From positions 896,001-960,000 of the forward strand of contig CBDHDG010000007.1 in the NCBI GenBank assembly GCA_965261595.1: a DNA stretch of 64,000 bases, written 5' to 3'. Below the pieces are notes generated by a model. That model did no database searches and was not told where the DNA came from. It saw only the letters and a list, made by a program, of their open reading frames with translations. This DNA is from a bacterium. GTDB taxonomy: Bacteria; UBA8248; JACPRG01; G963555815. This document shows positions 20,881 to 45,722 of this stretch, in pieces. The translations under genes were made by a program, and so were the position numbers. The stretch's first letter is position 1. Each line of letters begins with the position of its first letter.

Positions 20881-22023
20881 GTGCGAATCAAGAGTGTTCA
20901 GATAGACGGTTTTAAGTCCTTCCGGAAATTTGACTTGGACTTGAAGCCTCTCAACGTCCTCATCGGCCCCAACGGTTCGGGGAAAACGAACTTCGTCGAC
21001 TTTTTCAAGTTTATCCGTGAGGCGGCCGAGGAGGAACTCATTGAACCATCCCTCAGGCGCGGCGGCGCGTCAGGGATCGTCTTTCGCGGGTTAAATGAGA
21101 AGGAGCAAAAGGTATCCGCGTCGTTGGATTTCGCTTGGGACGATGAGTCACAGAGGCATAATCGGGGGATTTATAAGCTTCGCTTGAGGCCGCAGCCAAC
21201 TGATGTCCTCGTTGATGCGGAAGAATTCGTTCTCGTGGACCGAGAAGGCCGCGAGGCACCTTCCCCTGAAACCGGGCTTAGATCGGAGGTCCTCTCAAGG
21301 AGACGGTTAGCGATTGGAGAGACCCTGCCCACTTACGGCGGCGAGCCCGGGATCCACGGGTTTAATCGCTTGGGAGTCAGGGATTTTGCCTGGATCGGTG
21401 ACGCCGCAAGGGGCTGGAGGTTTTACGAGACAATTAATACCGGACCGAGGTCGGAGATTCGGATGCCCGCGCTCGCACGGAGTGGTTTCGAGCTAAAGGA
21501 GGATGGGTCGAACCTTACGAGTGTTCTACATAGCCTTCATAGTTTTCCTGAGGGCGAAAAAACGTACAAGGAAATCGAGGAGACACTTCATTTGGTCTTC
21601 AAAGATTTCAAGAAGATGACGTTCCCCTCACAGGGAGGCGACGGGAGATTGTACTTAAATTGGAGAGAGGGGCCATTCAGCGAGGAAACGTTCTCCGCGA
21701 TGTTCCTTTCCGACGGGATGCTGAGATTTTTATGTATGCTGGCGATTTTCCGCTGCCCGACACCACCACCACTCATCATCGTTGAAGAGCCGGAACTCGG
21801 CCTTCATCCTGATCTGATTCGGCTTGTTGCCTCCCTCGTGAAAGAGGCGAGCTCCCGGACGCAGCTCATCGTGACCACCCATTCGCCCGATCTGGTCTCG
21901 GAGCTTGAGCCCGAGGACGTTGTTATCGTTGAGAAGGCGGATGGCGCTACAGAAATGCGCCGGATTTCAGGGCCTAATCTTGAGATCTGGTTGAAGGAGT
22001 TTAGACTAGGCGAGCTTTGGTAA
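20881..22023 (+). CDS. ABC/SMC-like ATPase (AAA_21/COG4637-like); ancestral end probably 22050
   Basis: GFKS, Walker A GPNGSGKT, LSDG signature, Walker B EEPELGLHP, TTHS H-loop. Confidence 0.85.
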   Translation: MRIKSVQIDGFKSFRKFDLDLKPLNVLIGPNGSGKTNFVDFFKFIREAAEEELIEPSLRRGGASGIVFRGLNEKEQKVSASLDFAWDDESQRHNRGIYKLRLRPQPTDVLVDAEEFVLVDREGREAPSPETGLRSEVLSRRRLAIGETLPTYGGEPGIHGFNRLGVRDFAWIGDAARGWRFYETINTGPRSEIRMPALARSGFELKEDGSNLTSVLHSLHSFPEGEKTYKEIEETLHLVFKDFKKMTFPSQGGDGRLYLNWREGPFSEETFSAMFLSDGMLRFLCMLAIFRCPTPPPLIIVEEPELGLHPDLIRLVASLVKEASSRTQLIVTTHSPDLVSELEPEDVVIVEKADGATEMRRISGPNLEIWLKEFRLGELW

Positions 22024-22046
22024 ATGGGAGAAATTGGCGGGCGGCC

Positions 22047-22685
22047 TTGAGAATTTACTTTGCCTGCGAGGGAAAGAGCGAAGAAAGATGCATAGATTCT
22101 ATTCTCTTAAACCCGGGGCTAAGGTTCAGAGAAATCGGTATCGAGTCAAGAACTTTGAATCTCGGAGGTTCCCAAGGATTCCTGAAGCGAATTGGCCATA
22201 CCGTAAAGAGCGCCATCATGCAAAGCCGGGCGGATGCGGTTTTTGGCCTAACGGATCTCCGCGGTGCTGCGATCCAACTCCCTGGCGATGGGGTTTCTAA
22301 GGGGAAAAAAGCAGAGGTCTACCGCAATCATATCCACCAGAAGGCCGATCAGGAGTATCACGAGCGCTTCTTTCTGCATGTCGCTGTGCATGAATTGGAG
22401 GCTTGGATTCTGGCAGATCACGATGCAATCAGCCGGCATCTCAATGCCCCAGGCGTTGAAGAAATAGCCAATCCGGAAGATGTCAATCTGGAGAATCCCC
22501 CATCAAAACGATTAGATGACATTTTCTTTGAACACCAAATGCAGCCATATTCAAAGGGGAATGATCAATCGCTTCTGTGGAAAGAAGTTGATGTGAGGAA
22601 AGTCTATGCCCGATGTCCACACTTTGCGGCATTCTTGAACGATTTGGCAAAAGTCGCGGGACTTAACGGCCCGTTCCACGTCTAG
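22047..22685 (+). CDS. DUF4276-like (TOPRIM-related) protein
   Basis: ACEGKSE N-terminal motif, LTDL, ELEAWILAD, PE.VN..PPSKRL, CPHF. Confidence 0.75.
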   Translation: MRIYFACEGKSEERCIDSILLNPGLRFREIGIESRTLNLGGSQGFLKRIGHTVKSAIMQSRADAVFGLTDLRGAAIQLPGDGVSKGKKAEVYRNHIHQKADQEYHERFFLHVAVHELEAWILADHDAISRHLNAPGVEEIANPEDVNLENPPSKRLDDIFFEHQMQPYSKGNDQSLLWKEVDVRKVYARCPHFAAFLNDLAKVAGLNGPFHV

Positions 22686-29248: not shown

Positions 29249-30011
29249 TGTTAGTGGCGCCAAGGAAACGCGTTTAACTGGTGCAGGGGGTGGTTTTTGA
29301 TGGTGCATATATTTCGCGTTGCGAACGGGGGGGGTCAGAAGGGCGGATCTTTGTCCCACAGCGGCAACTGTTCATCGTTGTCGGTGTGTTGTGTGTAGTG
29401 GCGACGGATCTGTGCGAAGTAGCGATTTTCGAGGCAACGCGCGATTTCATAGAGGCAACAGATGAGCTGGGCGGCGGCTTCGTCGGAGAGGTTGTCGGGG
29501 AGTTCGGGGTCGCGTTCGTCGTCGGTGTTCATGATTATTTGGCGAGGGTTTTCTTTTGTCGCTTTGGGCGTGCGGCCTTACGCTGCTCGGCACGCTCTTG
29601 GGCTTCTTTAAGGCGGTAGCTGCTGGCCTCGATGGGCAGTATTTCGCAGCGATGAACGAGTCGGTCGATGAGGGTGACGACACAGGCGGCGTTGGGGAAG
29701 ATGTCGTTCCAATCGGCGAACGCTCGATTGGTAGTGACGATGATGGGACGCAGCTGATAGCGTCGAGTGACCACCTCGAAGAGCAGGTCGGCGTAGCGGT
29801 TGTCGTAGTCGAGGCAGCCTATTTCGTCGATGGCTAAAATGTGCGGCAAGGTATAGCGCTTAAGGCGTCTGGACAGGGCGGCGGAGGAGTCCTGGGCGGC
29901 GAGGTCATGGAGCATATCGGAGGCGGTGACGAAGCGCGCCGAGGCGCCGTTGATAACGGCGTGATGGACGAGGTTTTTGGCGAGCATAGATTTACCGACG
30001 CCGTTGGTCCC
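29249..30011 (-). mobile_element. istB: IS21-family remnant: istB 3' part (29535-30011), small ORF (29335-29532) and terminal repeat
   Basis: GVGKS Walker A, IDEIG, TTNR.F.DW, IDRLVH, SYRLKE; TG end with repeated tgg(c/t)gc motifs. Confidence 0.85.
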
Positions 30012-31412
30012 CCGCTCTAGGGTTTTGTTGGACACTCGATTGATCCATGATTCATGGAGAAAGGGGTGTCGCGATGAACGAACAAAAGCAAGAGGGGGCT
30101 TTGGCGGAGGGCGCCCGCAGGGCGAACGGAGCCAAGGCCCCAGGGCATCGCAGTGAGCGGGGTCGGTTCTCCTGCCAGGCGCAAGCGGGAGGCGGTCCTG
30201 CGTCTTTTGCGGGGCGAGAGCCTGGAGACGCTCTGCCGCGAGTTGGGCACGACAGCGGCTCGGCTTTCCGCCTGGCGCGAGGCGTTCCTTCGCGGGGGCG
30301 AGGCGGCGCTCAAAGCCCGCCCGGCGGATGAGCGGGACGAGGAGAACGCCCGGCTCAAGGCCAAGGTGGGCGAACTCACGATGGAGGGCGAGGTCCTGCG
30401 GGAGAAGATCGACCGCCTGGAGGCCGGCCGCCCTTTAGCCGGCAGGAGGTGGAGGCGATGAGTCAGGCCCGCTTCACCTCCACGGGCAGAGCCTACGGCC
30501 TGAAGCGGGTGTGCGCCCTTTGAGGCTTGGCGCGCTCCACGGTCTACGCGCAACGGCGGCGAGAGGCGGTCCCCGTTCATGAACGCCCCACGCCCAATAA
30601 GCGCGGCCCTGTGGGCCCGTGCACCGATGCGGAACTCCTCGGCCACATCCGGCAGGTCCTGGAGGACTCTCCCTTCCATGGCGAGGGCTACCGCAAGGTG
30701 TGGGCGAGGCTGCGCTTCGCGGGCATCCGCACCAGCAAGGAGCGGGTGCGTCGCCTGATGCGGGAGGCGGGGCTTCAGGCCCCCCACCGGGTGGGCAAAC
30801 CCCGAGGTCCCAAGGCCCACAACGGGACCATCCGCACCGAGCGGCCCGACCGAATGTGGGGCACGGACATGACGACGACGGTGACCACCGAGGAGGGGAT
30901 GGCCTCGGTGTTCGTGGCGGTGGATCACTGCTCGGTGGACTGCGTGGGGATCCATGCGGCCAAGAGCGGCAACCGCTTCGAGGCCCTGGAGCCGATCCGG
31001 CAGGGGGTCGCCGAGCGCTTCGCCGGCTTGGAGGCGGACGTCGCCGAGGGGCTTAAAGTTCGTCACGACCACGGCCCCGCCTATCTGTCCGATGACTTTC
31101 AGCGGGAGATCGCCTACCTGGGCATGACCAGTTCGCCCAGCTTCGTGCGGGCGCCCGAGGGAAATGGCTACTGTGAGTGGTTCATCCGCATCTTGAAGGA
31201 GAATCTCCTGTGGGTGCGCTCTTTCGCCACCGTAGAGGAACTGCGGTGGGCGCTGCTTGAGTTCAAGAACCTGTACAACCATCATTGGATTCTCGAGGGC
31301 TACGGCTACCGAACGCCGGCCCAGGCAAGGCAGGAAAAACTCGCTCAAGTTGCGGAGGCCGCATGAGGTCGAATACCCTCACCCGAGTGTCCAATAACCC
31401 AGGGGCGGTCCA
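30012..31412 (+). mobile_element. IS3-family element, damaged (orfA frameshifted; TGA at 30521 in orfB 30458-31366)
   Basis: GYRKVWARLR, WGTDMT, RHDHG, PEGNG; inverted ends ttggacactcg / cgagtgtccaa. Confidence 0.85.
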
Positions 31413-31449
31413 CATGACTTCCACATCGAAACCGTGCACTACCCGCTGC

Positions 31450-32139
31450 CTAAACCTCTCCCTCGAGGATTTGACCGTGCTCCCTTAGCCAGCCGCGCGC
31501 TCTGTCCATGGTGGGTACTTGTGTCTTCACTATGTTCCAGAATCGCGGCGTATGGTTGGGCTCCAAAAGGTGGGTGAGTTCATGGGCGATAACGTAATCG
31601 ACCACAAAGATCGGCGCCTTAATCAACCGCCAGTTCAGGTTGATGTTGTCACGAACTGTGCATGAGCCCCACCGATATCGACTATCAACGATGCGCGCCT
31701 GCCAAAAGGAAACGCCAAGCTCTCGAGCCTGCTTCACAACGCGAGGTAGAATTCGCTCCTTTGCTCGCGCGATGTACCACTCACGCATGGCACCCTTCTT
31801 GTGAGTCGCAAGCGATGCCGAAATCAGAAAACGCTGATCAAACCGAATACGTTCCGTCTCTTTGTCGACGACTTCGATCCGGTAGCTCCGCCCAAGATAT
31901 AGCGCGGACTCACCATTAACGAGCTCTTTGCCAGGTGGATGAGGGCGCCCCGTGTTTTTTTGGCTATGCCGTGTTTTCTCGTAGATCCAATGCCGCTTGG
32001 CTTCGACTATCCGCACAATTGCTTCATCGGACGCATGATTCGGAGCGTGCACAACAACCTTTCTGTCACGCTCGATAGTGATCGTAACCTTCGTTCGTTT
32101 TGAAGATCTTTTTACCGAATAGGTAATATCCATCGTCAC
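31450..32139 (-). CDS. M48/YgjP (DUF45)-like metalloprotease of type I R-M loci
   Basis: RWGSC, DYVIAHELTHL.E.NH..RFW (HExxH). Confidence 0.88.
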   Translation of the reverse strand: MTMDITYSVKRSSKRTKVTITIERDRKVVVHAPNHASDEAIVRIVEAKRHWIYEKTRHSQKNTGRPHPPGKELVNGESALYLGRSYRIEVVDKETERIRFDQRFLISASLATHKKGAMREWYIARAKERILPRVVKQARELGVSFWQARIVDSRYRWGSCTVRDNINLNWRLIKAPIFVVDYVIAHELTHLLEPNHTPRFWNIVKTQVPTMDRARGWLREHGQILEGEV

Positions 32140-35100
32140 TAGTCCGCGAAAAGAATCATGTCATTGTTCTTTTCAGCGATTTCCATAACTCGGCTAATGA
32201 TGTGCGCACGATTCTTGATGAGGTCGGGCACTTTGGCGAACTCAGGCGCGAGCAAGGTTTTTTGGATCTCTGCTTTCAGCTTGTTGCGGGCCGGAATGCT
32301 CTCCCAGAATCCTGCCAATTTCAGCTCTCTCTCAATAACGAGAGTAATCTGCTGTGTCAAATCTACTAGACAGCTGATTCGGTCTTCATCGTCGATGCCA
32401 TAGACAGCATGCTCCTCAGCCACCTGAGACTGATCCACAGTCGGCTTATCTGCACCGAACAGCTCACGCTGAAACATTCGAAAGAATGGCATTTGCTTTT
32501 TTCGATGCAATCCGTATGTTGGCTCGTTGCTGGCATTGATAATGCGCGCCCGCAGCTTCTCTAGTTCTTCGTAGATCTTGTTCCAGTTGTCGCGGAATTG
32601 CTCAAAGATGACCGCCAGGGCTTCGGCGAAGGAGGCTCGCAGATCCGGATCATCGTCCAGGTCTACGTCGAGGTGGTGGCGGATCGCGTGCTCGATTTCG
32701 GCCGCCTTGGTCTTGGTCCGGCGGTGCTCGCCGACACCCTTTTCGAAATCCTCGTCAAGGATCGAGATCGGCGGGACTTTGACATCGATGTCCCGGGACT
32801 CGAGGTGGGCATCCGTGATTGCACGAAGCTTCGCCGGGATCCCCTTCATGCTCAGGCGCTGGTCGCGGAAGTGTTTTCCGGCGAGCACATTTATCTCGGC
32901 GAGCGCCTTGTAGTCGCCCATGAACTCAAGGGCCTGGCGGGCCGGGAACAGGAGATTGAGCGACTTGGTCAGCCGCTTGAACGCCAGCATGAAGTCAAAG
33001 CGCAGGTCCTCGTCGTAGAACACATCGTAGAAGGCATCGTGATCGCTCATGTCCGTAAGTCCGTGCTTCTGGAGCAGGGCCATCACGGCGGCGTGGGCTT
33101 CCTCGAGTTCCCGCAACTCCTCATCGGGGAAGCTCAGGGCGTCGATGATCTCCTTCTGCTCGCGCTCGTCGTAGGTGTCGATCGCTTTCTTGAGATGGTG
33201 GCCAATGCCGACATAGTCCACCACGAAGCCCTTGTCCTTGGATTCGCCGCCCACGCGGTTCACACGGGCGATGGCCTGCAGCAGGTTATGGGCAACCACG
33301 ACCTTGTCCAGATACATCACCTGCTCGACCGGCGCATCGAAGCCGGTAAGCAGCATGTTGTTGATAATGAGGATCCCCAGGTCGCCGTTGACACCGTCTT
33401 CTTCACTGCCGAACGCCAGTTTGAAGCTCTTGATGCTCGCCTCGTGCCGTGACGAGTCGGAATACTCTTTGAGGTGGGGCAGGTCGTTGTGGCGTCTGGA
33501 GATCACGACGTCCGTCTTCATCGCCTTGAGGCGGTCCAAGTCCAGCTTGTGCCCGTATCGGCCTGCTCCAGCTTTGCGACCGCCGCCGCGAGCGCGGCGT
33601 CCAGGTGCTTCTTGTAGCGCACGGCAGCCTCGCGTGACGTCGCCACCACCTGCGCCTTGTAGCCGTTGGGGAACACATGCGCGAGGTAGTGCTCCACCAT
33701 GTCCCTGGCCTTGGTCTCGATGGTCAGCTCTGCCTCGAGATAGGCGTCCCGCGATCCGTACCCGAGGATGTCCAGACGCTGCTGGATGTTGTACTCGCTG
33801 AACACGTCCTCGAACGCCGCGTCCATCCAGCCCCGGTCGGGGACCTCCGCGTTGTGCGTGCGGCCCTCGTAGACGATCTCTAGCGTCACGCCGTCCTCGA
33901 TGGACTGGCGCATCGTGTACTTGTCGATGTAGTCGCCGAAGACTTGCTCGGTCTTGTCGATCGGCGTGTCCGTGTAGCCGATTTTGGCGGCGTTGGGGAT
34001 GCCCTTGTCGAGGTTGGCCCCAAGCAGCTTGTACTGCGATCGGTGGGCCTCGTCAGTCATGACGAGGATGTTGGGGCTGGCGTTCAGCTCCGGGAAGGTC
34101 TCGGTCAGGTCCGCCTCGCGGAACTTGTGGATCATCGCCATCACCAGGTCGGAGGTGTCGGCGCTGAGCAGTTCCTTGAGCCCCTTGATGCTGTCGGCCA
34201 GCTTCACCGTGAAGCCGATGCTCTGACTGGTCTCGGACAGCTGCTGTTCCAATTGGGTGCGGTCGGTAATGAAGACGACCTTCCAATTCGAGAGCTGCGC
34301 GTGACGGTACATCTCCCGAACCATGAACATCATGGTGAGCGACTTGCCGGAGCCCTGGGTGTGCCAGACGATGCCGCTGCGCTCGCGGGGATTACGGCCT
34401 TCGATAAGCCGCTTTACCGCCAACTTCACCGCACGGAACTGTTGGTAGCGGCCGACGATCTTGATCGTCTGGCCCTTATCATTCGTCGAGAACAGCGTGA
34501 AGGTCCGAATCAAGTCGAGCAGGTTGTCCCGGTCAAGCATGCCGGCGACGAGACGCTGCTGGTCGTTGGGGCTGCCTGAGCCGTGGTCCAGCTCGTCCAC
34601 GGTTCGTGGATACGGGTCGGCCCAGCGGTAGAAGTACTTCTCCGTGTGCGTGGTGATGGTGCCGAACTTGGCTTCCTGCCGGCAAGTCGCCACGACGAAC
34701 TGGTTGTAGTAGAAGAGCGGCGCATTCCCTTCCCTCTCGGCCCCGCGCTGCTCGCTGTAGCGGAGAAGCTGATCGATCGCCTCGGGAATCGCGTCCTTGA
34801 CCTTGGGCGATTTGCACTCGATCACCACCACTGGCAGACCGTTGAGGAACAGCACGACGTCGGGGATGATGTGGTGCTCGGTGCCGAGGACGCGGACCTT
34901 GAACTGGCAGACCGCGATGAAGCGGTTGTTGTCGCGGGTCCCAAAGTCCGCGAAGCGGACGGTCGGGCTCTTCTCGCCGCTCTGACGGTTCTCGCTGACA
35001 CTGGTGTTCTCCAGTAGGAGCTGGAACAGGTGCTTGTTGTTCTCCAGCAAACCGGTGCTCGGGAAGCTCGCGGTGAGCTGCTTGACGACCTCCTCGACCT

Positions 35101-35326
35101 GATCGTCTTCGAGCCAGGGGTTGATGACCTTGAGCCGCTCGCGCAGCACCGGCGTCATCACGACCTCGGTGAAGCTCTCCCGATGGGTGTCGGCCGGGGT
35201 CTGCTTCATGTCCGTCAAGTCGATGACCGCCCAGCCCAAGCCCGCAAGCTGGTCGAGCAGCGGCTTTTCGACGTGGTTGCGCTCGTCGAGGCGAAGTTCC
35301 TTGGCTGTGGTCGATTCCGTGCCCAT
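32139..35326 (-). pseudogene. hsdR: type I restriction endonuclease R subunit, frameshifted near 33550
   Basis: PDVVLFLNGLPVVVIECK, WHTQGSGKS, DEAHRSQY, MLLTGFDAP, QAIARVNR across two frames. Confidence 0.93.
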
Positions 35327-35340
35327 GGCCGCCTGCCCCT

Positions 35341-35991
35341 TTACTTATGTTCCATCGGATGCGATCCGAAGTGGTCCGGGAGATCGTCGAGCCTTTCGCG
35401 ACACCTGAACGTCAGCGTGACCTCGCCGGTGGTCTTTCGCGTCGTCCAGTAGTTGCCCCTTAGCTTTTGAGCCGGCTCCCCGATGATCTCGAAGAGCATC
35501 GCTCCATCATGTGGCTGACTGCGATCTGGTATCAGAACCGACGGAACACTTGTATAGCAATATGCCAGCTTGCGTACCTGCTCGTCATTGTCGATCCAAA
35601 AATCAGCGCAATAACTGCGACTGGTCATCTCAGCCGTGCGCATCACACAACTGATTCGGCCAAACGTCTGCCGTATCATCAGAAGCACCGGAATCGGGCC
35701 GGGAACTTCTCGGGTATCCGGGTTCTTCCAAGTCGTCTGAAGGTGCCCCTGCCAAGTGCCATCGAGGCAAGGAAACGGCACAAGCCAGTTCCGAAAGATC
35801 CGCCACTTCCAGGCGTACAGCACGAAAGCCATCCATACGATGAGCAGGATGGGCACCGTCTTGTAGGCGATCTTCAACGCACTCCAGACATCGCGGACCT
35901 CTGCCCCCGTTGCGAGTGCAACGGCGATGAAACAGACGGCGAAGAGGCCGAACATGAAGAATGCGAATGGTCTGACCTTGATGTTCTTCAT
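35341..35991 (-). CDS. cap15: CBASS effector, SMODS-associating 2TM beta-strand-rich (Cap15-like)
   Basis: Two TM helices, AWKW, P.LDGTWQG, IRQTF, Y.Y.S.P, HDG, GNYWT.R.T.G. Confidence 0.88.
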   Translation of the reverse strand: MKNIKVRPFAFFMFGLFAVCFIAVALATGAEVRDVWSALKIAYKTVPILLIVWMAFVLYAWKWRIFRNWLVPFPCLDGTWQGHLQTTWKNPDTREVPGPIPVLLMIRQTFGRISCVMRTAEMTSRSYCADFWIDNDEQVRKLAYCYTSVPSVLIPDRSQPHDGAMLFEIIGEPAQKLRGNYWTTRKTTGEVTLTFRCRERLDDLPDHFGSHPMEHK

Positions 35992-36890
35992 TGGTATCCG
36001 ATGTAGTCCCATGCTGCTTGCAGGAACTCATTCGCCTCCTGCCGTGTCCAGGGCTGGGCAAGACGGAAGAGGTACTTCAGCTCGTTGACCTCGCCCCATT
36101 CCGAGCAGTCATCATCCTTTCGCGTGCGGTTCCACAAATCCGCAAGTAGATGCCGGACGATCGCTGTGTACGTGTCCTTGCTGAATGCATCGACGTTAGC
36201 GTTCCAGACCAGGCACTCAATCAGGAACGACGGCGTCTTCTTGGCTATGGCGATCCCATCGTCCTGCATCCTGTCACGCAGCCGCTTGAGGATACGGATG
36301 ACCCGCTTGTACTTCCGTCCGGTTGCGGTGTTCCGTTCCACTCCGTTGTTGTAAGTCTGCTCCGGCCAGTTAATGACCCGCGAACCTGAGTCGGGATCAA
36401 ATGCGACCCCGGACAGATAATGATGGCTGCCGTCGGCATTCTTCCGCCCCGTGTACCAGCGGCACTCGAATGTCGGGACGACATCTGCGTCGATGCGGTA
36501 CGTGTTGGCATGGACGTCAAATGCCTTGTTGCCTCGCGTAACACCAGTCTTGCCGAAGTAGTCCTCCAGCACCTTCTGGACCATGCTTTTGAAATCGGCG
36601 AACGGAAGCGATTCCTCAACATGCCCGAACGTCTCCCGTGTCGTACCTTTCGGATAGTCGGGGAAAAACGCCGAGTCATAGCGCACGCAGATGTCCACGT
36701 CGCTGTTCTGCCGGACGTTGGTCCTCGCACGATACGACCCTTGGGCGAACACGGAAATGTCGAGGGCGGCAAGTTGCTCACTCGCTTTGATGGCCTTTCG
36801 CACGGCCGTCTCAGCATTGCTGCACTTATCGGCCTCGGTTTGGCCGGGTCCCTTCGACCATGACACGAGGTTCTCTTCGGAAATGTTCAC
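35988..36890 (-). CDS. cdnE: cGAS/DncV-like nucleotidyltransferase (CdnE-like)
   Basis: QGSY...TNV...SDVD, RGNKA, DADVVP, INWPEQ..NG..N, YKR..RILKR, SFLIECLVWN. Confidence 0.9.
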   Translation of the reverse strand: MNISEENLVSWSKGPGQTEADKCSNAETAVRKAIKASEQLAALDISVFAQGSYRARTNVRQNSDVDICVRYDSAFFPDYPKGTTRETFGHVEESLPFADFKSMVQKVLEDYFGKTGVTRGNKAFDVHANTYRIDADVVPTFECRWYTGRKNADGSHHYLSGVAFDPDSGSRVINWPEQTYNNGVERNTATGRKYKRVIRILKRLRDRMQDDGIAIAKKTPSFLIECLVWNANVDAFSKDTYTAIVRHLLADLWNRTRKDDDCSEWGEVNELKYLFRLAQPWTRQEANEFLQAAWDYIGYQ

Positions 36891-38185
36891 GCGCCGACTA
36901 CCTGCTCCGGGCTCCCTAAGAGTGCGGTTACCCGACGATCTCCTGTAAGCAGGTCCTTCATGAGGCCACGCTTCTCTGCCTGCAACTTAGCGGTCAGGCC
37001 CTGGAGCCGCTCGTTGACCGACTGTTGCTCGTCAAAGATCCTCACGATGTGTTTCTGCTCGTTCGGCAGCGGGACACCTACCAAGGCGGCCTGCAGCTCA
37101 TCCATGTCAAACCGTTTGGTGCCATGCGTCGCAGTCGTGGTGAGCTTTAGGAACTGGTGAGAGTGTGACGAGAGCCAGTACGCCAGATAGCGACCCATGA
37201 GCCCCTGTTTGGGCACAATCGCCTTCACGTCCTGATTAAATACCACCTCCGTCCTAGAGACTCCTACCGGGAATGTGTGCGCCAAGATCATCCCGCGAAT
37301 GACAATGAACACCGTGCCGGTCGGCATGAGTCGGGCGCCCGCAGCGACGGCATCCCCGGTAATTGTGTCGATGCTCTGGTGAAGCTCAAACTGCTTCATG
37401 TCTTTTGGGCAGACCCACGGAACCCCTCCGCCCCAGAATCGCCGGATGGCCTTGGAGGGAGTCCCGCCGCTGAACCACTGGCCGCAGGAACCGAATGGCA
37501 TCGGATCCCACTCCACCGGAACCCGCCCGAGCGCGGAGTCCTTGAACTCGTGGAACTGTTCGGAGCGGAGGTTGCCGTGCTCGTCGATTCCTCGGGTGAG
37601 CAGGTCCTGCATGAGGCCGGTCTTGATGCGCTGCTGCTTGGCGATGAGCGCCTCGGTCTCCTCGATCGCCCGATCGACGGTCGAGAGCACGCGTACAATC
37701 ATCGATTGTTCACGGAGGTCAGCGGGGATGTCGACATTGACACCCTTGGTAAAGGCGGTCTTGAGGCCTGGCTGTGCCGAGCCCGAGATCTGCAGGCGGA
37801 TCTGCGCCTGCCCCAAATCAGACAAGAGTGAGTAGTAGAGGTATCCCTGCATTATTTAGTCAGGATCGCCGCGCAAGAGGAACACGTGTTCATTGATGCA
37901 GGCAACGAGAGCGCGGCCAGGGTGATACCAGCCAACCTTTCCTGTCTGAGCGCCGTCCTTATTAATCAGAACATCATTGTCACGCAGGTGCCCCTAGGTC
38001 ATTCTGTTGAAGAACGCGACCGGCACGCGCTTTACGTCCTCCAGCGTGACTCCTCCGGATTGCAGGATATTCTCGCCTCCAATGCTGAGCACTTCGCCGC
38101 CATCAATGGATGCACCGCCCGTGGGGCGAGAGCCACTCTCCAGTGTGGCGATCACGGTTTCCAGCGCTTCGTTCGACCACGTCAT
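36887..38185 (-). pseudogene. hsdS: type I R-M specificity subunit with two in-frame stops (TAG 37994-37996, TAA 37856-37858)
   Basis: Two target-recognition domains with conserved EQ..I, KTGLMQDLLTRG and KRGLMKDLLTG; the reading frame continues through both stops. Confidence 0.92.
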
Positions 38186-40879
38186 GACGACACTTCGAAG
38201 TAACCGAGGCCGACAAGATAGCCGTCAAGGGCCTTCAATGTCTGAGCGCGATTCGAGTCCAGCACCTGAGTGCTAATCGAGTACTTCTCCCATAGATTCT
38301 CGACGACTCGCACGAGCACCCGCTTCTCCGCATTGAAATAGCGGTCCAGCTCGGCGCGGGCGACGTCGTAGATTTTCTTCAGGATCAGGCGGCGAGCGTC
38401 GGCCTCGCTGATCTGGCCGCCGATCACCTTGAGCACCGCATCGACCTGGACAAGCCGGGCATTCAGCGCCTCCTTGTCCTTATCGAGCGCGGCAACGGTC
38501 TTCTTGTCGGCCTTCTTCTTCGGGTTCAGCCCGGCGAGACGGGCCTCTGCCTGTGCGATCAGCGCCTGGGCCTCGACCTTGAAGTCGTCGGCCCCGAGGC
38601 GCTTGAGTTCGAGCTTGAACTCCAACTCTGTGGCCTTTTCCTTGAGCGTCGCCTTGGCGTCCTTGCTCCGCTTCTCGATCGCCTTGATGGCCTTGTCGTG
38701 GTCCGTGAGGTTCTTGAGTTCCTTCTTAGCGGAAGCGCCGGCGCTGTCCTTCAGGTCGTCGATGAGTACCTTGAGGGCCTTCTTGATGACGGCGGCGGTG
38801 ACCTTCTCGTCCTCGTCGGGCTCGTAGCCGCTAACCTCCTGGGCGATCTCGACGGACTCGGACAGCTCGCCCTGGGCTTCGGCGATGGTCGCCTCCAGCG
38901 CCTCGATGGCGTCGGCCTCGGCCTGGAAGTACTCGGCAATGAGGTGTTCATCGGGGATGAGCGTGTGGTGCCAGCCGGTGGAGACGATGGTTTTGAGGTC
39001 GTAGCGGATCTGCTGCCACCAGTTGACGAAGACGCCGGCACTCTTGAACTCGTCGAGCACGCCCAACGGCACGAGCTTGGCCTTGAGGGTGGTGAGCAGC
39101 TCGTGGCGGACCTCGGGCATCTTCTTGCCGCCGTTGCCCGCATGCTGGAGCTGGGCGAAGTCGTCCCTGGCAACCGCCCACCAGGATTCGAGGGCGTCGT
39201 GGTGCCGGGTGAGAGTGCCCAGCAGCGCCGGGGCCGCTTCGAGCGTGGCCTTGATGGCGGGCCTGGCGTCGATGAACTCGCGAAAGGCGAGGTAGGCGGG
39301 ACGCTCGGGCTCGAAGAGTGAATCCGGGTTAACGCCGAACTTGGCGAAGTCGTCCGTGAGCGCAGCGACCTCCACCTCCGGGATTCCGCCGATGAGGTGC
39401 GCCTGGACATCCTCCGGCTCGGGGTTGGGCGTGTTGTCCACGTAGCGGCGGATGTTGAGGTTGTAGTCGTGGGTGTCCACGATCTCGGACTTAGGCACGA
39501 GGCGCGAGTGCTTGGGCAGCTCGCGCTTGTGGGTGAAGACGAAATCGATCTTCTCGATGTCCTCGGGGCGAAGCCGGTTCTGATTCTTGCCCTCTGCGTA
39601 TTCGCGATCGGCGTTGATGAAGAGGACCTTGTCCTTGAGTGCGTCGGGCTTGCTCTTGTTGCAGACCAGCACGCAGGCGGGGATGCCCGTGCCGTAGAAG
39701 AGGCCGGGCGGCAGGCTGACGATGGCCTCGATGCAGTCGTCATTGATGAAGAGCTCGCGGATGAGCTTTTCCTTACCACCACGGAACAGGACCCCGTGCG
39801 GCATGATCGTCGCCATCCGGCCGTTGGACTTGAGGCTGGCGAGCATGTGCTGCACGAACATGAGGTCCGCCTTCTTGCCGGACTCCGGGCACCACTCGCG
39901 GAAGCGACTGGTGAACTTCATGCCGGCGCGGCTGTAGTTCTGCGAGAATGGCGGGTTGGCGAGCACCCGGTCGAACTTGCGGATCTGGCCGTTGTCGAGC
40001 ATGAGCGGGTCCTCCAGCGTGTCACCGTTCTCGATCGTGGATCGGGTGATATTGTGGAGGATCATGTTCATGATGCAGATAGGACCAGACCGTTCCGTTG
40101 GAGTCCTGGCCGTAGAGGGCGAGGTCGTCGGCGTTCTGGCCCTGCTCTTCCACGTACTGGTGGGACTGAATGAGGAAGCCGCCGGAGCCGACCGTAGGGT
40201 CGTAGATGGTGTTGCCGGCCTCCGGCTGGGTGAGCTGGACGAGCAGGCGGACGACCTCGCCCGGGGTATAGAACTCACCGCCCTTCTTGCCGGCGCTGTC
40301 GGCGAAGAACTTGATGAGGTACTCGTAGGCGGCGCCGAGCAGGTCGGGGAACTCGAAGTTGTCGTTGACGAGGACGAACCCGGGCTGGCTGAAGTGGTCG
40401 AGCAGATCTTTCCACTTTTGGTCCGGGATCTTGGTCCTGCCCTTCACCGCGTTGAAGTCGATGTTGTTCTTCAGCACACCGGCGAGTGCATCGTTCTCGT
40501 CTTCGATGGCAGCGATGGCCTTATTGAGCATGTTGCCGATGTCGTGCTTTAGGTCCTTCAGGGCTGGCACGAGATCGCCGTTATCGTCCTTCCAGGGCTC
40601 GTGCCAGCGGGCTCTGACAGGGACAAAGAAAGTCTCGCCGTAGGATGTCTTGTCTTCGAGCAACTCGGCGACGAGATCCGGCTGGTCTTTGAAGTGTGCG
40701 AAGGTCTTCTTGTGGAGCTGCTCGCGTTTGCGGTCGAACTCGTCGGAAAGCCGCTTCAGGAACAGCATGCCGAAGATGAACTCCTTGAATTCCGAGGCGT
40801 CCATCTTGCCGCGCAGGATGTCGGCGGCCTTCAGGAGGAAGGACTCGAGCTGGGCGAGGGTGATTTTCCCTTGTTTCAT
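38182..40879 (-). pseudogene. hsdM: type I R-M methyltransferase subunit, frameshifted near 40080
   Basis: [22 protein letters not shown], then ANPPFS, PHGVLFRGG, YNLNI.RY in the next frame. Confidence 0.93.
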
Positions 40880-41330
40880 CTTCTGCCCCCTCTCACGCTT
40901 CCGCCTCTGCCTTCCCCTTTTGCTTCTCGTACGCCTGCCGGACCAAGCCCATCACATATGGCTCTCTTCTGCATCCTATAGGAAATTTCCAGCGGCGCTC
41001 AGCAATTCATTCCTTCGTAATATACTGTATTATAACGATTTTCTTTCCTCCATCGCACCATCGCACCAGCCCGCTTGATCGGCACTGCCAAATTGCGAAA
41101 GCACAGCGCAACCGGATTTGCGCACTATCTGAGCTCGGCATGCCAGCGATTGACGCCCACGCCCCGGAACGCACGATTCCGGCCCCGGCCGGGTAGGAGG
41201 GGTCGTTGCGAGCCATCTTGTTCGGTCACGCAGTGACAGCGGTCTGGCAGCGAAACCCAGCCCCCGACACTCCGCTCCGCTGCCCTCCGGGGCGCTCGCC
41301 CGCCTCCCGCCGGTCCGCGTCGGCTGAACC

Positions 41331-41621
41331 CTAGCGCACCGCGTCGCGCAGCGTCTTGCCGGCCTTGAACGCGGGAGACTTCGAGACGACGATCTCGATG
41401 CTCTCGCCGGTCCTCGGGTGCCGCCCGGCGCGCGCCGGGCGGCACCCGACGGAGAACGTGCCGAACCGCGCGAGCGCGACCGTATCCCCCTTCGCAAGCG
41501 CGTCCTGAATCGCATCCAACACCCCGTCGACGGCCGCCGACGCCTCGGCCTTCGACAGCGAAACGCGGTTTGCCACCCGCGACACCATGTCTGCCTTGTA
41601 CACCATGTCTGCCTTGTTCAA
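41331..41621 (-). CDS. hup: HU-family DNA-binding protein (island copy)
   Basis: NKADMV, FGTFSV, R.GRHPRTGESIEI, PAFKAGKTLRDAV. Confidence 0.9.
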   Translation of the reverse strand: MNKADMVYKADMVSRVANRVSLSKAEASAAVDGVLDAIQDALAKGDTVALARFGTFSVGCRPARAGRHPRTGESIEIVVSKSPAFKAGKTLRDAVR

Positions 41622-42195: not shown

Positions 42196-43020
42196 TAGAC
42201 CTCGGGGCTCGTAAAGGCGGCATCGGCCCGAAAGGAACGGCGAACATCAGCGTGCTCATAGCGGGCCGTGATGGGCTCCAACAACTTTCGCCACCCATCG
42301 GCGCTGTGAACGTTGCCCAGACGCAACATCGCCCCCTCGCAGTCCCCAAACGGGTTGAAGCAGAATAAGGGATGGTAGCAGAGGGAACCGAAGTGACCGT
42401 TATAGGCAGTCCCTTCCTGCTGTCCGTGCACCCGGCTTTCCGAGCTATCCATGTCCAGGATGACCCGCTGATGCGGCGTGCGGCTCATGGCCCGCTCTAC
42501 CCATTCCGTGTTCAGTTGCCTCAGCCTACTCAGGTTCTCCTCGCTGCAGAGAACTTCAGTCTCGAACCGGCTCCATGTGTTGGTGCTGGCCGCCTGCTTC
42601 TCAAGTGCCCGCCGGCCAACTACGGCTTGCCTAGCAGGGTCTCTCGCCAATCGCTCGGCATCGTTGGTGTCCTCGTACCCGGCCAGGCGACTATAGACTG
42701 ACTGGCGCAATAGCGGCACCAACTCATGCTGGACGTTCCGGCCATGACGGATCTCTTGCAAGTGGGCTGGCGCTCTCACCGTCAAACCCAGCGCATCATC
42801 CAACTCCCGGCAGGCCAGCAATCCTGCATCTGAAGTGATTCTGGCTCCGTGAAAGTCAAGCCTCAGCTTACGGTTACAATGGACCCTCAATGCCGTCTTT
42901 TTCGCTTCACCCATAGGGGTACCCCGCGAGAACGTGGCAGGGGGAAGCCAACACGCTGATTTTACAAGAAAAAGCGCCTTTCGGTCTGTCGAATCTTATG
43001 ATCTAAATGGGAAATGCGGG
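42196..43020 (-). mobile_element. IS1380-family element, 5' half only
   Basis: ITSDAGLL, GYEDTNDA, LDMDSSES, FRADAAF; end CCCGCATTTCCCAT shared with the copy at 50518. Confidence 0.88.
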
Positions 43021-45253
43021 TGAATACGATGGCGCGAGGCCACCGTTCTTCCGGAATCCCATCACTGATGTAGACCCACCACGGCCGCGAGGCGGATTCG
43101 ACACAAGCCAACACCTCCCCGTGGGCCATGTGTCCAGGGCTGAAGTATTCCTCCCGACCCTGGATTTCATCGAAATGGCCGCCCGCCGGTTGACGCTGGA
43201 TGCTGACCCATGAATCGCCGTCGGGGGCTCTTGCGGCGTGGCGGTCAAGGGCGGTTCGCACTTTGTGGCGCATCGGTAGCAGGAAGTCGCTGTGCAGATA
43301 GAGCGTCCCCGCGCTCATATTCTCCGGCGCGAGCTCGAAGCCAACCCAGTATGCGAAGGCAACCAGGTTGAGGAACCCGCGCAGGTTCGGAAGGAGAATG
43401 CCCCTTTCCTTCAGTTCGTCGACCTGCTGGAGCAGCTTCCAGGCCCGCAGTGCGGTGAAATCCGGCAGGCTTCCCAGAAGCATAAAATCGGACGCGGATA
43501 CGCAAAGCCGCTGCCAGCCGGGCGGAAAGTCTGGAAGGTCTTCCAAAGTCGGCGAGAACCTCCGCCCGACGCCGCCGTGCACGAGAACCGTCAGGCCTCT
43601 CCGGTAGTCCTGTCTACTCGCAAGGGCCGACGCACGCTCCCGGATCCGCTTGCAGACCGCCTCCTCAAGCGGACGGATACTGGCGAGCCCTGCCTCGCCG
43701 GCAGCCTCGAAATCATCCGGGACGAAGACCAGATGGACATATCCGCTTTCGTCGAACGTCCCGATGAACTCCCGCATGCCGTCGTCGGGATCCGGCTCTG
43801 GCATCTCGATGTATCCGACACCCCAACCCGGGCGCCCCAACAGGAACGCTTCCGAAAATTGCGCCAAGTGCCATGTCGATTGGAATGGCCGTAGGTCTCC
43901 TGCCGCCGCAGCCTGCTCAATCGCGAAACGCCTGACCGCCGTACCAATCGCGGTTGGGACAGCGACTGTCGTGCACCCCTTGAGCCGCACCAGGGGGCGA
44001 CGTTCCAGCGCTGGGTGACCCATCGTCTGTCCGGCGAGCGAGCCCGCATGCTCGTTTTGAATGACGAAGGGGTAGAGGGCCCCCGGCCCGACCCCTATCG
44101 CGGCCAGGTCCTCGTCGCTGAAAACGACATGACGACTCGATTCCTTCACCGCTGAATCGCGGAGGACGATCTTTTCCCCCGGCGTGCTTTCCGTGCGGGT
44201 GTAACGCTCCGCCCCGGCCCGTTCGGCCAAGGCCTCGCTCAAGCGCAGCAAAGCCATGATGTGTCCTAGGGCCTCCCGCGCCCAAGGACGCTCTTCTCCG
44301 ATCCTGAGCAGCGTCTCGGTGCAGGCTCTCACATATTCTGCGTTGTTTTCCCAGCGCCCCTGGAACAACCGTGCGTTCCCGAAACTCGCCTCCACATTCG
44401 AGACAAAGACATCCTCGATCGGGATCTCTAGCTTCGCGATCGGGTCCTCGTCGATCTCGGTCAGCCACTCGCGCAACTGCTGTAGGCCCGGCTTCTTCCT
44501 GCCCCGGCAAGCCAGCGCGGCCAGATGAAGCAGCGCTTCGATTCGGGCGGTCGCCGTGTGGTTCTCTGGACGGGTCAGCAGGCCGGAAAGAAGCACAGCT
44601 ACCGCGGGGAAACTGTATTTCCGGAGGCGCCTTAGCAATCGGGCTTGACGCGCCGCTATGCCTCGGAGGTCCCGCACCTTGGCTCCTGCAGCGTCCGCGG
44701 ACAGCAATCTGGCGGCTTCGCCCTGAGGGTCCAGAGGTTCGCTCTCTTCTACGATAGCAACGAAAGCATCCAGGTCAGCAATGACCCCCGAAGCTGCCTT
44801 TGGAGCGGATTCGGCCAGAATCGAGGCCAAGGTTTCCTTCGGCTCATTGGCGATTCTGGCTGCGTCTTCATGGCGTCCCATGGCGCGCGCGGTTTCGACC
44901 ATGGAGTTCCGCAGGCCGTCGAGCGCCTCGTCCGGCATACTGGCGATCCACCCCGCCATGTCGGTGTCGGGCGGGGCTATGAAGACATGCGCGCCGACAG
45001 CGAACAGCGCGGCCTGCATCGCGAAGTCGCTCACCTTCTCCGGGGCTTCCGGCGCCAAGACTGCGAGGGCATCCGCAACTGCGGCGGCGAGAAGTCGCTC
45101 GGCTCCGGCAACGGCACCGGGATCGATCCCGCCATCGCTCACCTTCGAGTCCGGTTCCCTTGCCGCCCGCCGGACGAGCGAGTCCTTGGATGCAGCGATT
45201 GCGGCCTGCCGCTCGGCACGGGTGAAAGACTGCAAAGCGTTATTGAATGTCAT
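43021..45253 (-). pseudogene. large hypothetical protein truncated at the C-terminus by IS1380
   Basis: More than 740 open codons running into the IS end; family not recognised. Confidence 0.6.
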
Positions 45254-45722
45254 CGTCAACGCATTCCGATCCAGTCTTGAAGCGACTCCCCGCGGGCCGT
45301 TCCACTTCAATGAGGCGCCGAGGCCGGATTACCAGATAGCGCCCGGGACCGACCCACGGGGGCCCTTCATGCCGGAGCGGTCGGACCGCGGCGCGGTATC
45401 TTCATCGAGTGCTAGAAATTTCCTATCCGCCATAGGAAAGGCGGACACCCTTTTGCCCGGATTCGGCCAAAAGTCTAATCGACGGCACGCGCCCAACCTT
45501 CCGTCAGTGCACTGATGGCAGTGAAGCAGGCCTCGGGCCAAACTGACCACCATCGGCTTCGGTAATCGCACCACCCAACGACCGAACACACACCCGCCGT
45601 CATCGTCACCCGCTGACCAAAGCCTTACTCGCCACCGCCGCGCATCCCGGCTGGTTGCACGCTTCCGTCCCCGCAATTTCGGCGGCCTCGGTGTGCCGCC
45701 CGACATTGCGCTGTCCCGCCCT

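Follow-up and report, generated by a model that had tools for sequence, protein, structure and literature searches.

Within a 64,000-nucleotide stretch of a bacterial genome of the UBA8248 lineage (assembly GCA_965261595.1, contig CBDHDG010000007.1, positions 896,001 to 960,000 of the forward strand; hereafter the window), an antiphage signaling system based on cyclic oligonucleotides (CBASS), consisting of the cyclase gene cdnE and the effector gene cap15, lies inside a type I restriction-modification (R-M) operon. We consider it probable that this is a horizontally acquired type I R-M operon with an embedded type I CBASS that would form a second layer of defense independent of the Hsd proteins, that the R-M part was inactivated recently, and that the state of the cassette itself is uncertain.

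The operon occupies positions 31450-40879 on the minus strand, and ORF (open reading frame) calls, the sequence itself and Pfam matches give the gene order hsdM, hsdS, cdnE, cap15, hsdR and a YgjP-like gene. Pfam and PADLOC place the HsdM, HsdS and HsdR domains in this one operon, each subunit being spread over more than one ORF. The methyltransferase gene hsdM (38182..40879) is represented by ORFs at 40022-40879 and 38182-40278, between which the HsdM_N and N6_Mtase domains are divided. The specificity gene hsdS (36887..38185; Methylase_S and PADLOC Specificity_I) consists of pieces at 37994-38185 and 36887-37852, and the restriction gene hsdR (32139..35326) of pieces at 33518-35326 and 32139-33539, with HSDR_N and SWI2_SNF2 in one ORF and the C-terminal T1R_D3 and T1RH domains in the next. 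The two CBASS genes between hsdS and hsdR are intact: cdnE (35988..36890) encodes a clade-E CD-NTase (cGAS/DncV-like nucleotidyltransferase) of 300 amino acids (aa) from a GTG start, and cap15 (35341..35991) encodes a two-transmembrane (2TM) effector of 216 aa with a cyclic-dinucleotide receptor domain, read from an ATG at 35991. The last gene of the conserved operon (31450..32139) encodes a YgjP-like metallopeptidase (PF01863, E 5.8e-55).

The junctions are tight throughout. The hsdM/hsdS junction is an ATGA at 38182-38185, a start/stop overlap of 4 bp; the GTG start of cdnE overlaps the hsdS stop by 4 bp (GTGA, 36887-36890), the ATG of cap15 overlaps the cdnE stop by 4 bp (ATGA, 35988-35991), and 14 bp separate the cap15 stop (35341-35343) from the hsdR ATG (35326). 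Lacking any intergenic space to itself, the cassette is expected to be transcribed together with the R-M genes and probably to be translationally coupled to them as well. A scan of positions 31000-41600 found two promoter-like sites against 2.4 expected, none of them above chance and none in the flank upstream of hsdM (40880..41520, minus strand) that we presume to be the promoter region, and 10 terminator-like sites against 8.8 expected.

Several lines of evidence identify the cyclase. CdnE matches the PADLOC cyclase profile PDLC00801 from end to end (E 3.6e-126), scores just under the cut-off of the Pfam SMODS family (25.3 bits against 26.5), and among sequences of the Protein Data Bank (PDB) has five matches, all of them CdnE-group proteins (7x4f at E 9.2e-74, ClCdnE, EfCdnE, 6e0m and 6e0k); the matches to LpCdnE, ClCdnE and EfCdnE among the solved structures range from E 9e-74 to 2e-57. 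The catalytic residues G51, S52, D64, D66 and D136, which make up the GS...DxD...D pattern, are invariant in an alignment of 29 sequences including the window protein, as are Q279 and W281. Compared with 80 relatives, the protein deviates in one of 75 highly conserved columns (A107V). As for its product, Asn174 and Q279-P-W281 align with the NWPEQ and QMW motifs of LpCdnE, and the accessible text of PMC10442399 ties an Asn in lid 1 together with an (R/Q)xW motif in lid 3 to pyrimidine donors in CdnE enzymes; because these residues match the pyrimidine-donor motifs, a pyrimidine-containing cyclic dinucleotide is the likely product.

The effector, Cap15, passes the Pfam family Cap15_CD_rec (PF18153) with 63.1 bits against a cut-off of 31.2, the domain lying at residues 72-194, and covers positions 1-211 of the 211 positions of the PADLOC 2TM effector profile PDLC00702 (E 3.3e-81). 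Two hydrophobic segments are present at the N-terminus (approximately residues 4-33 and 38-66, in windows of 19 residues), none of 24 highly conserved columns deviates from the relatives, and a comparison with PDB sequences gave no match. The operon holds no Cap2/Cap3 (E1/E2/JAB) or HORMA/TRIP13 genes, its other members being only hsdM, hsdS, hsdR and ygjP, and because it is free of accessory CBASS genes we classify the cassette, from its sequence, as a CBASS of type I, made up of CdnE and Cap15, that is built into a type I R-M operon. An earlier note on this DNA, drawn up from the letters alone, had proposed an intact type I CBASS with CdnE-like and Cap15-like genes; the PADLOC, Pfam and PDB matches, the full-length frames and the retained key residues bear this out, the PADLOC check it had suggested returning both the cyclase and the 2TM effector profiles. 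Its gene order, coordinates, 4-bp overlaps and 14-bp gap proved exact when the sequence was read again. It had also placed a metallopeptidase last in the row, which was right, and called it M48, where the domain is YgjP-like.

To describe related loci, we collected 2949 CdnE homologues at E <= 1e-20 from a protein database and scanned one genome per species, which gave 110 relatives, of which 80 loci were kept. Flanking genes were annotated by phmmer with the Hsd proteins of locus L002 and then with those of eight further loci, and by Pfam searches of the two unlabelled ORFs closest to the cassette on either side; a cassette was called embedded when a type I operon on its own strand enclosed it. 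By this definition 14 of the 80 loci are embedded, two are appended and 64 are neither. Within the operon, cdnE is placed directly behind hsdS in 12 of the 14 embedded loci, with an identical 4-bp overlap in nine of those 12.

The gene order of the window operon is found again in L001, L002, L047 and L017, with GmrSD added: the first three read hsdM, hsdS, cdnE-cap15, GmrSD, hsdR and YgjP, and L017 carries Abi_C between hsdS and the cassette and a GmrSD-like gene behind it. Two further loci on short contigs show hsdS followed by the cassette (L010, L015). Elsewhere hsdM stands downstream, either directly, as in L016, L018 and L025 ((hsdR-)hsdS-cdnE-cap15-hsdM), or beyond additional genes: M78/DUF4411/Fic in L019, where other genes lie between hsdR and hsdS, DarT and DarG in L022 (hsdR-hsdS-cdnE-cap15-darT-darG-hsdM), and a DUF4062 gene in L029, which also has a HigBA-like pair between hsdR and hsdS. 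An archaeal metagenome-assembled genome (L077) has the order hsdM, YhcG, hsdS, cdnE-cap15 and hsdR, and L070 the order hsdM, cdnE-cap15, Bro-N, hsdS, hsdR and YgjP. In the two appended loci the cassette follows hsdR-ygjP or ygjP (L062, L082), and in L008 a type I operon adjoins the cassette on the opposite strand. One more locus, L032, is not included in the 14; the 60 codons upstream of its cdnE are a 3' remnant of hsdS preceded by stops. The other loci are stand-alone or lie beside BREX, type II or IIG R-M, TIR genes or a pair of HTH (helix-turn-helix) and M78 genes, and in some a patatin replaces Cap15.

When 81 CdnE rows (the 80 loci and the window) were placed in a quick maximum-likelihood tree, the window protein sat on a short branch (terminal length 0.068) in a clade, starred on the tree, of 28 rows, of which 13, including the window, are embedded, one is adjacent and 14 are other. 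Three of these 14 (L021, L028 and L032) have less than 1 kb of upstream sequence and are poorly assessable for that reason. Outside the starred clade two of 53 rows are embedded, so that embedding reaches 46% in the clade of the window protein and 4% elsewhere, a comparison confined to the CdnE tree; the embedding label requires eight changes on the tree. Two stand-alone members of the clade, L026 and L046, have their own HTH and M78 gene pair upstream.

The R-M operons that host the cassette are of several kinds. HsdM is 77-83% identical within one family (A; L002, L047, L017) and 64-81% within another (B; L016, L019, L022, L025, L029), and between families A and B HsdM is only 27-34% identical whereas CdnE is 57-67% identical. 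L077 and L070 represent further R-M families, and the embedding families are spread over several phyla and one archaeon. Since HsdM is far less similar than CdnE across families, and L077 and L070 stand apart, the sequences indicate that at least four unrelated type I R-M families acquired the cassette, which afterwards traveled with each of them.

Relatives of the cassette also occur with additional genes of their own. In five loci of a starred subclade from Myxococcota and others (L048, L055, L056, L058, L059), cap15 is followed by a gene for a protein of about 590 aa with a DACNG/DACNH sensor domain, whose ends overlap or abut cap15; the L055 version includes a DisA-type DAC domain as well. 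The gene may be a third member conserved in those CBASS operons. In four other loci (L006, L007, L009, L051), ThiF-type E1-like genes (DUF6791 or JAB domain) and a DUF6527 gene lie directly upstream of CdnE-Cap15, an arrangement that resembles Cap2/Cap3-type accessory genes joined to a Cap15 effector.

All three hsd genes of the window are interrupted, as judged against the intact operons of L002 (Rhodanobacter ginsengisoli; hsdM 895 aa, hsdR 1063 aa) and L047. In hsdM, an alignment with L001, L002 and L047 reveals a 1-nt insertion, an extra C near 40081, and residues 1-266 and 267-894 of the L002 HsdM map to two different frames of the window. In hsdS there are two in-frame stops, a TAG at 37994-37996 and a TAA at 37856-37858, both of which are substitutions and not insertions or deletions; an ATG at 37852 reopens the frame 3 nt past the second stop. 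In hsdR, a 2-nt insertion (CA) near 33552 switches the frame between L002 residues 590 and 592. The ratios of nonsynonymous to synonymous substitution (dN/dS) against L002 and L047 are 0.05-0.17 for the hsd pieces, in the same range as for cdnE (0.12-0.16) and cap15 (0.13-0.16), and on this basis we take the inactivation to be recent. The intactness of the cassette beside broken R-M genes carries no statistical weight, because four lesions spread over 9.43 kb would miss the 1.55-kb cassette by chance alone with a probability of (1-0.164)^4 = 0.49. Thus the earlier description of a CBASS welded into an R-M operon holds for the embedding, but its title omitted that the host hsdM, hsdS and hsdR are all broken. 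Split hsd genes around a whole cdnE-cap15 were also seen in L001, L017, L018 (hsdR and hsdM each in several pieces) and L029, all of them metagenome-assembled genomes in which assembly errors are possible.

To examine whether the lesions are real, we compared them with assembled contigs of four public runs (X1, X2, X15, X16). A 681-nt contig of X1 is identical to the window over 37646-38326, spanning both hsdS stops with 0 differences, and the hsdR insertion is present in contigs of X1 and absent from those of X2, X15 and X16. The hsdM frame break recurs in a truncated second copy of the gene on another contig of the assembly, C5, which is 99.84% identical over 2565 bp. Contigs covering hsdM are deeper (85) than the strain-specific hsdS contig (14) and probably come from other strains, and contigs lose rare variants. 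We take the lesions in hsdS and hsdR as real and that in hsdM as probable.

The window lies by the genes of the replication origin, and its housekeeping genes dnaA, gyrB, gyrA, serS and mnmE are whole. From about 27 to 50 kb it forms an island in which insertion sequence (IS) and phage genes are fragmented: parts of a terminase nuclease, of IstB and of an Upx-like anti-phage gene occur there, as do DDE and rve transposases that are split. A 1.4-kb repeat element (30008..31417, strand unassigned), which is IS-like by copy number only, has at least 40 copies in the genome at about 100% identity (279 first-look candidates). The 443-aa ORF of this element (30017-31348, minus strand) has no Pfam or NCBIfam match; it may encode a transposase not yet described, or else the real gene may be on the opposite strand. 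An IS scar had been reported absent from the locus; there is none inside the operon, but this multicopy repeat ends 33 bp past ygjP. The second hsdM copy (C5 10440-13004, corresponding to window 38956-41520) comprises the 5' two thirds of hsdM and 640 bp upstream, and adjoins two tandem copies of the same element.

Homology to L001, L002, L047 and L017 is bounded by the hsdM start and the ygjP end (31447-31450), and a ygjP-like gene follows hsdR in those four loci and in L070. Of 60 genome relatives, a single one gave any match to CdnE, at 34% identity, which means that vertical descent does not link the operon to known kin. Because of these bounds, the scarcity in kin and the repeat element alongside, we take the 9.4-kb operon to be a horizontally moving unit.

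Traces of exchange are visible immediately behind cap15. In L001, L002 and L047, similarity to the window continues past cap15 into the first 35-70 nt of hsdR, breaks off, and resumes at the true hsdR beyond GmrSD. L001 accordingly retains a 53-nt 5' stub of hsdR after cap15, of which 45 of 54 alignment columns match its own hsdR; L022 has a 65-nt 5' stub of hsdM between cap15 and darT (60 of 65 identical), and L019 a short hsdM stub after cap15. Contigs of other strains that arrive from hsdR diverge from the window at 35293-35296, the same place as the stub break. We infer that cassettes enter and leave by recombination in the first 10-25 codons of the downstream hsd gene and that the window represents the GmrSD-less state of the slot. 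The slot after hsdS would then be a recombination hot spot where cassettes replace one another or accumulate, and the 5' stubs of the downstream hsd gene would be what such events leave behind. As a separate observation, hsdM and hsdR are covered in all four runs by contigs several-fold deeper than those over cdnE-cap15 and the hsdS target-recognition regions (35288-37555), and many strains in these samples seem to share the R-M backbone with other cassettes or none.

The explanation we prefer is that CdnE would make a cyclic dinucleotide, probably pyrimidine-containing, on sensing phage, and that Cap15 would bind it, disrupt the inner membrane and abort the infection, both steps being modeled on characterized relatives (inner membrane disruption by Cap15 is described in the accessible text of PMC10442399). 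The CBASS would act as a second layer behind restriction, with no need for the Hsd proteins; four small lesions would recently have inactivated the R-M part, in an island riddled with IS elements and with the CBASS frames still whole, and expression of the cassette is uncertain because the genes upstream of it are broken. A conserved and recurrent arrangement is consistent with the co-expressed, layered system that the earlier note had envisaged, and a metatranscriptome contig of 1716 nt spanning the 3' half of hsdS, cdnE and the 5' end of cap15 hints at co-transcription in relatives. A number of observations weigh against this explanation. Metatranscriptome contigs may derive from DNA, and the source of this one is a relative that is 95% identical. 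The premature stops in hsdS could silence the cassette through coupling and polarity. The extra base in hsdM is absent from every covering contig in all four runs and may be an assembly error, and X1 is possibly the source sample, in which case it offers no independent support for the stops in hsdS or the insertion in hsdR. Finally, the clade-level enrichment of embedding could reflect a functional tie to R-M, which this explanation does not call for.

An alternative is that the whole operon, the CBASS with it, is a dead remnant in an IS-expanded genome, in which no lesion has so far struck the 1.55-kb cassette. This is a serious possibility, if the lesser one: four lesions lie in the flanking genes with an even chance of sparing the cassette, fragments abound in the island (pieces of IstB, of a terminase and of Upx, and split DDE transposases), one repeat element has reached at least 40 copies, and premature upstream stops may abolish coupled translation. 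Against it stand the single deviating conserved column in cdnE and the absence of any in cap15, the terminal branch being short, as well as the ATG 3 nt past the second hsdS stop, which could restore translation up to the cdnE start, and the appearance of related operons in contigs of metatranscriptome libraries. The opposite possibility is an assembly artefact, with sequencing errors behind the hsd lesions and a six-gene operon that works in full; it draws on the hsdM base missing from the contigs of all four runs, on the hsdR insertion missing from three of the four, and on the size of the assembly, which is 7 contigs for 6.17 Mb. We judge it very improbable: the hsdS lesions are substitutions to stops found without a single difference in the X1 contig, X1 also has the hsdR insertion, the hsdM break is repeated in the C5 copy, and long housekeeping genes (gyrA, gyrB, dnaA, serS) are whole. 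Moreover, the hsdM contigs that lack the extra base are the deeper ones, which probably belong to other strains, and the assembled contigs tend to drop rare variants.

Of a different kind is the suggestion, also made in the earlier note, that the CBASS may guard the R-M complex, with CdnE held inactive by the Hsd complex or monitoring it and firing on phage anti-restriction in the manner of PrrC/EcoprrI. The slot is identical to that of PrrC, between hsdS and hsdR (as given in the accessible part of PMC12707154), the junction with hsdS is tight and its 4-bp overlap conserved in nine of 12 loci, embedding is enriched in the clade of the window protein (13 of 28 rows versus 2 of 53), and at least four R-M families have taken up the cassette. 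We nevertheless find this improbable, and nothing in the analysis shows such guarding. The neighborhood survey that had been proposed as a check found that relatives retain the embedding and that it turns up in more than one R-M family, so that it is no local accident. In 64 of 80 loci, however, the cassette is neither embedded nor appended, and the earlier note had itself named mostly stand-alone homologs as grounds for rejecting the idea. A specific contact between CdnE and Hsd proteins is argued against by the low identity (27-34%) of the HsdM proteins of the host families; the downstream neighbor in family B is hsdM and not hsdR, and the same slot hosts the unrelated cassettes GmrSD, DarTG, Abi_C and M78/DUF4411. 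Stand-alone members of the clade (L026, L046) carry their own HTH and M78 pair, and the related Ssc-CdnE03/Cap15 system, according to the accessible text of PMC10686824, works without its R-M and is triggered by phage RNA. In the window, moreover, there is nothing left to guard because the R-M partner is broken. A bolder extension of the slot model is that one CdnE-Cap15 clade has specialized in living inside type I R-M operons, promoter-less and fused to the stop codon of hsdS, passing between unrelated families and stacked with other cassettes by Campbell-type integration and excision that leaves 5' stubs, so that the slot is integron-like and, in the boldest form, the cyclase reads the state of the R-M system; we regard this as speculative and rather doubtful.

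Two other features of the window lie outside the operon and look related to defense. Between gyrB and gyrA, a two-gene insert (20881-22685, plus strand) encodes an ATPase of the AAA_21/AAA_15 kind, which NCBIfam matches weakly to MAD3 and retron-effector ATPases, together with a DUF4276 protein; it looks like a small defense-type pair set into the row of genes near the origin. Upstream of the operon, a 782-aa ORF (42962-45310, minus strand) matches the first half of NCBIfam Upx with 213 bits against a cut-off of 1900 and is probably a fragment of another defense gene.

For the genome studied here, returning to the layered arrangement that we favor, the host R-M operon is decaying in an IS-expanded chromosome, in which the intactness of the cassette is without statistical weight. 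More generally, the hsdR and hsdM 5' stubs behind cap15 offer a testable mechanism for the stacking and loss of cassettes in this slot. Beyond what we found in print, only the affinity of one clade for the hsdS-proximal slot and the stub signature are added. A literature search on CBASS with type I R-M or hsd genes matched no title or abstract devoted to nesting, the sole mention in the accessible texts being a figure legend in PMC10686824, and the term CBASS is absent (0 occurrences) from the main text of the Payne et al. preprint, whose figures and supplements may list it.

The closest described system is Ssc-CBASS of Staphylococcus schleiferi (CdnE03 and Cap15, type I-B), a two-gene operon of a clade-E cyclase and Cap15 beside a type I R-M system, which the legend in the accessible text of PMC10686824 gives as "flanked by a type I R-M"; the same text reports that the two genes suffice to protect S. 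aureus RN4220, a strain whose HsdR is defective, and that the cyclase is activated by a phage RNA. The two systems, compared by description, differ in that Ssc-CdnE03 makes cyclic GMP-AMP (cGAMP) whereas the window CdnE has the QxW pyrimidine motif. The latter is shared with LpCdnE, ClCdnE and EfCdnE (7X4F, 7X4A, 7X4C), which have the Asn in lid 1 and (R/Q)xW in lid 3 and are encoded with Cap15 as well (accessible text of PMC10442399); at the lid 2 position, the window CdnE has Thr179 where these enzymes have Asn or His. In its location the cassette recalls PrrC/EcoprrI of type IC R-M, an abortive-infection gene in the hsdS-hsdR slot (accessible part of PMC12707154), from which it differs in that PrrC is an anticodon nuclease unrelated in protein to CdnE or Cap15 and, according to the available text of the Payne et al. 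preprint, is almost exclusively embedded, whereas the cassette is embedded in only 14 of 80 loci.

The nesting of defense genes in type I R-M operons is already established. DarTG2 of enteropathogenic Escherichia coli lies between hsdS and hsdR, a slot that has been termed a potential recombination hot spot (PMC12255303), TgvAB of Vibrio cholerae VPI-2 is nested in a type I R-M system (PMC11411939), and in the accessible text of the systematic "guilt-by-embedding" survey by Payne et al. (bioRxiv 10.1101/2024.01.29.577857) embedded genes share the orientation of their host in 96.7% of cases. Like DarTG2, TgvAB and the GmrSD-like HEC-05/06 of that survey, the genes described here are defense genes that sit within a type I R-M operon and point the same way as it does, and DarTG (in L022) and GmrSD (in L001, L002 and L047) even share the slot with cdnE-cap15; the difference is that the cargo in the window is a CBASS. 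The window thus adds a clear CBASS case to the defense systems nested in type I R-M operons, and one that is not a one-off, since about half of one CdnE clade shares the arrangement.

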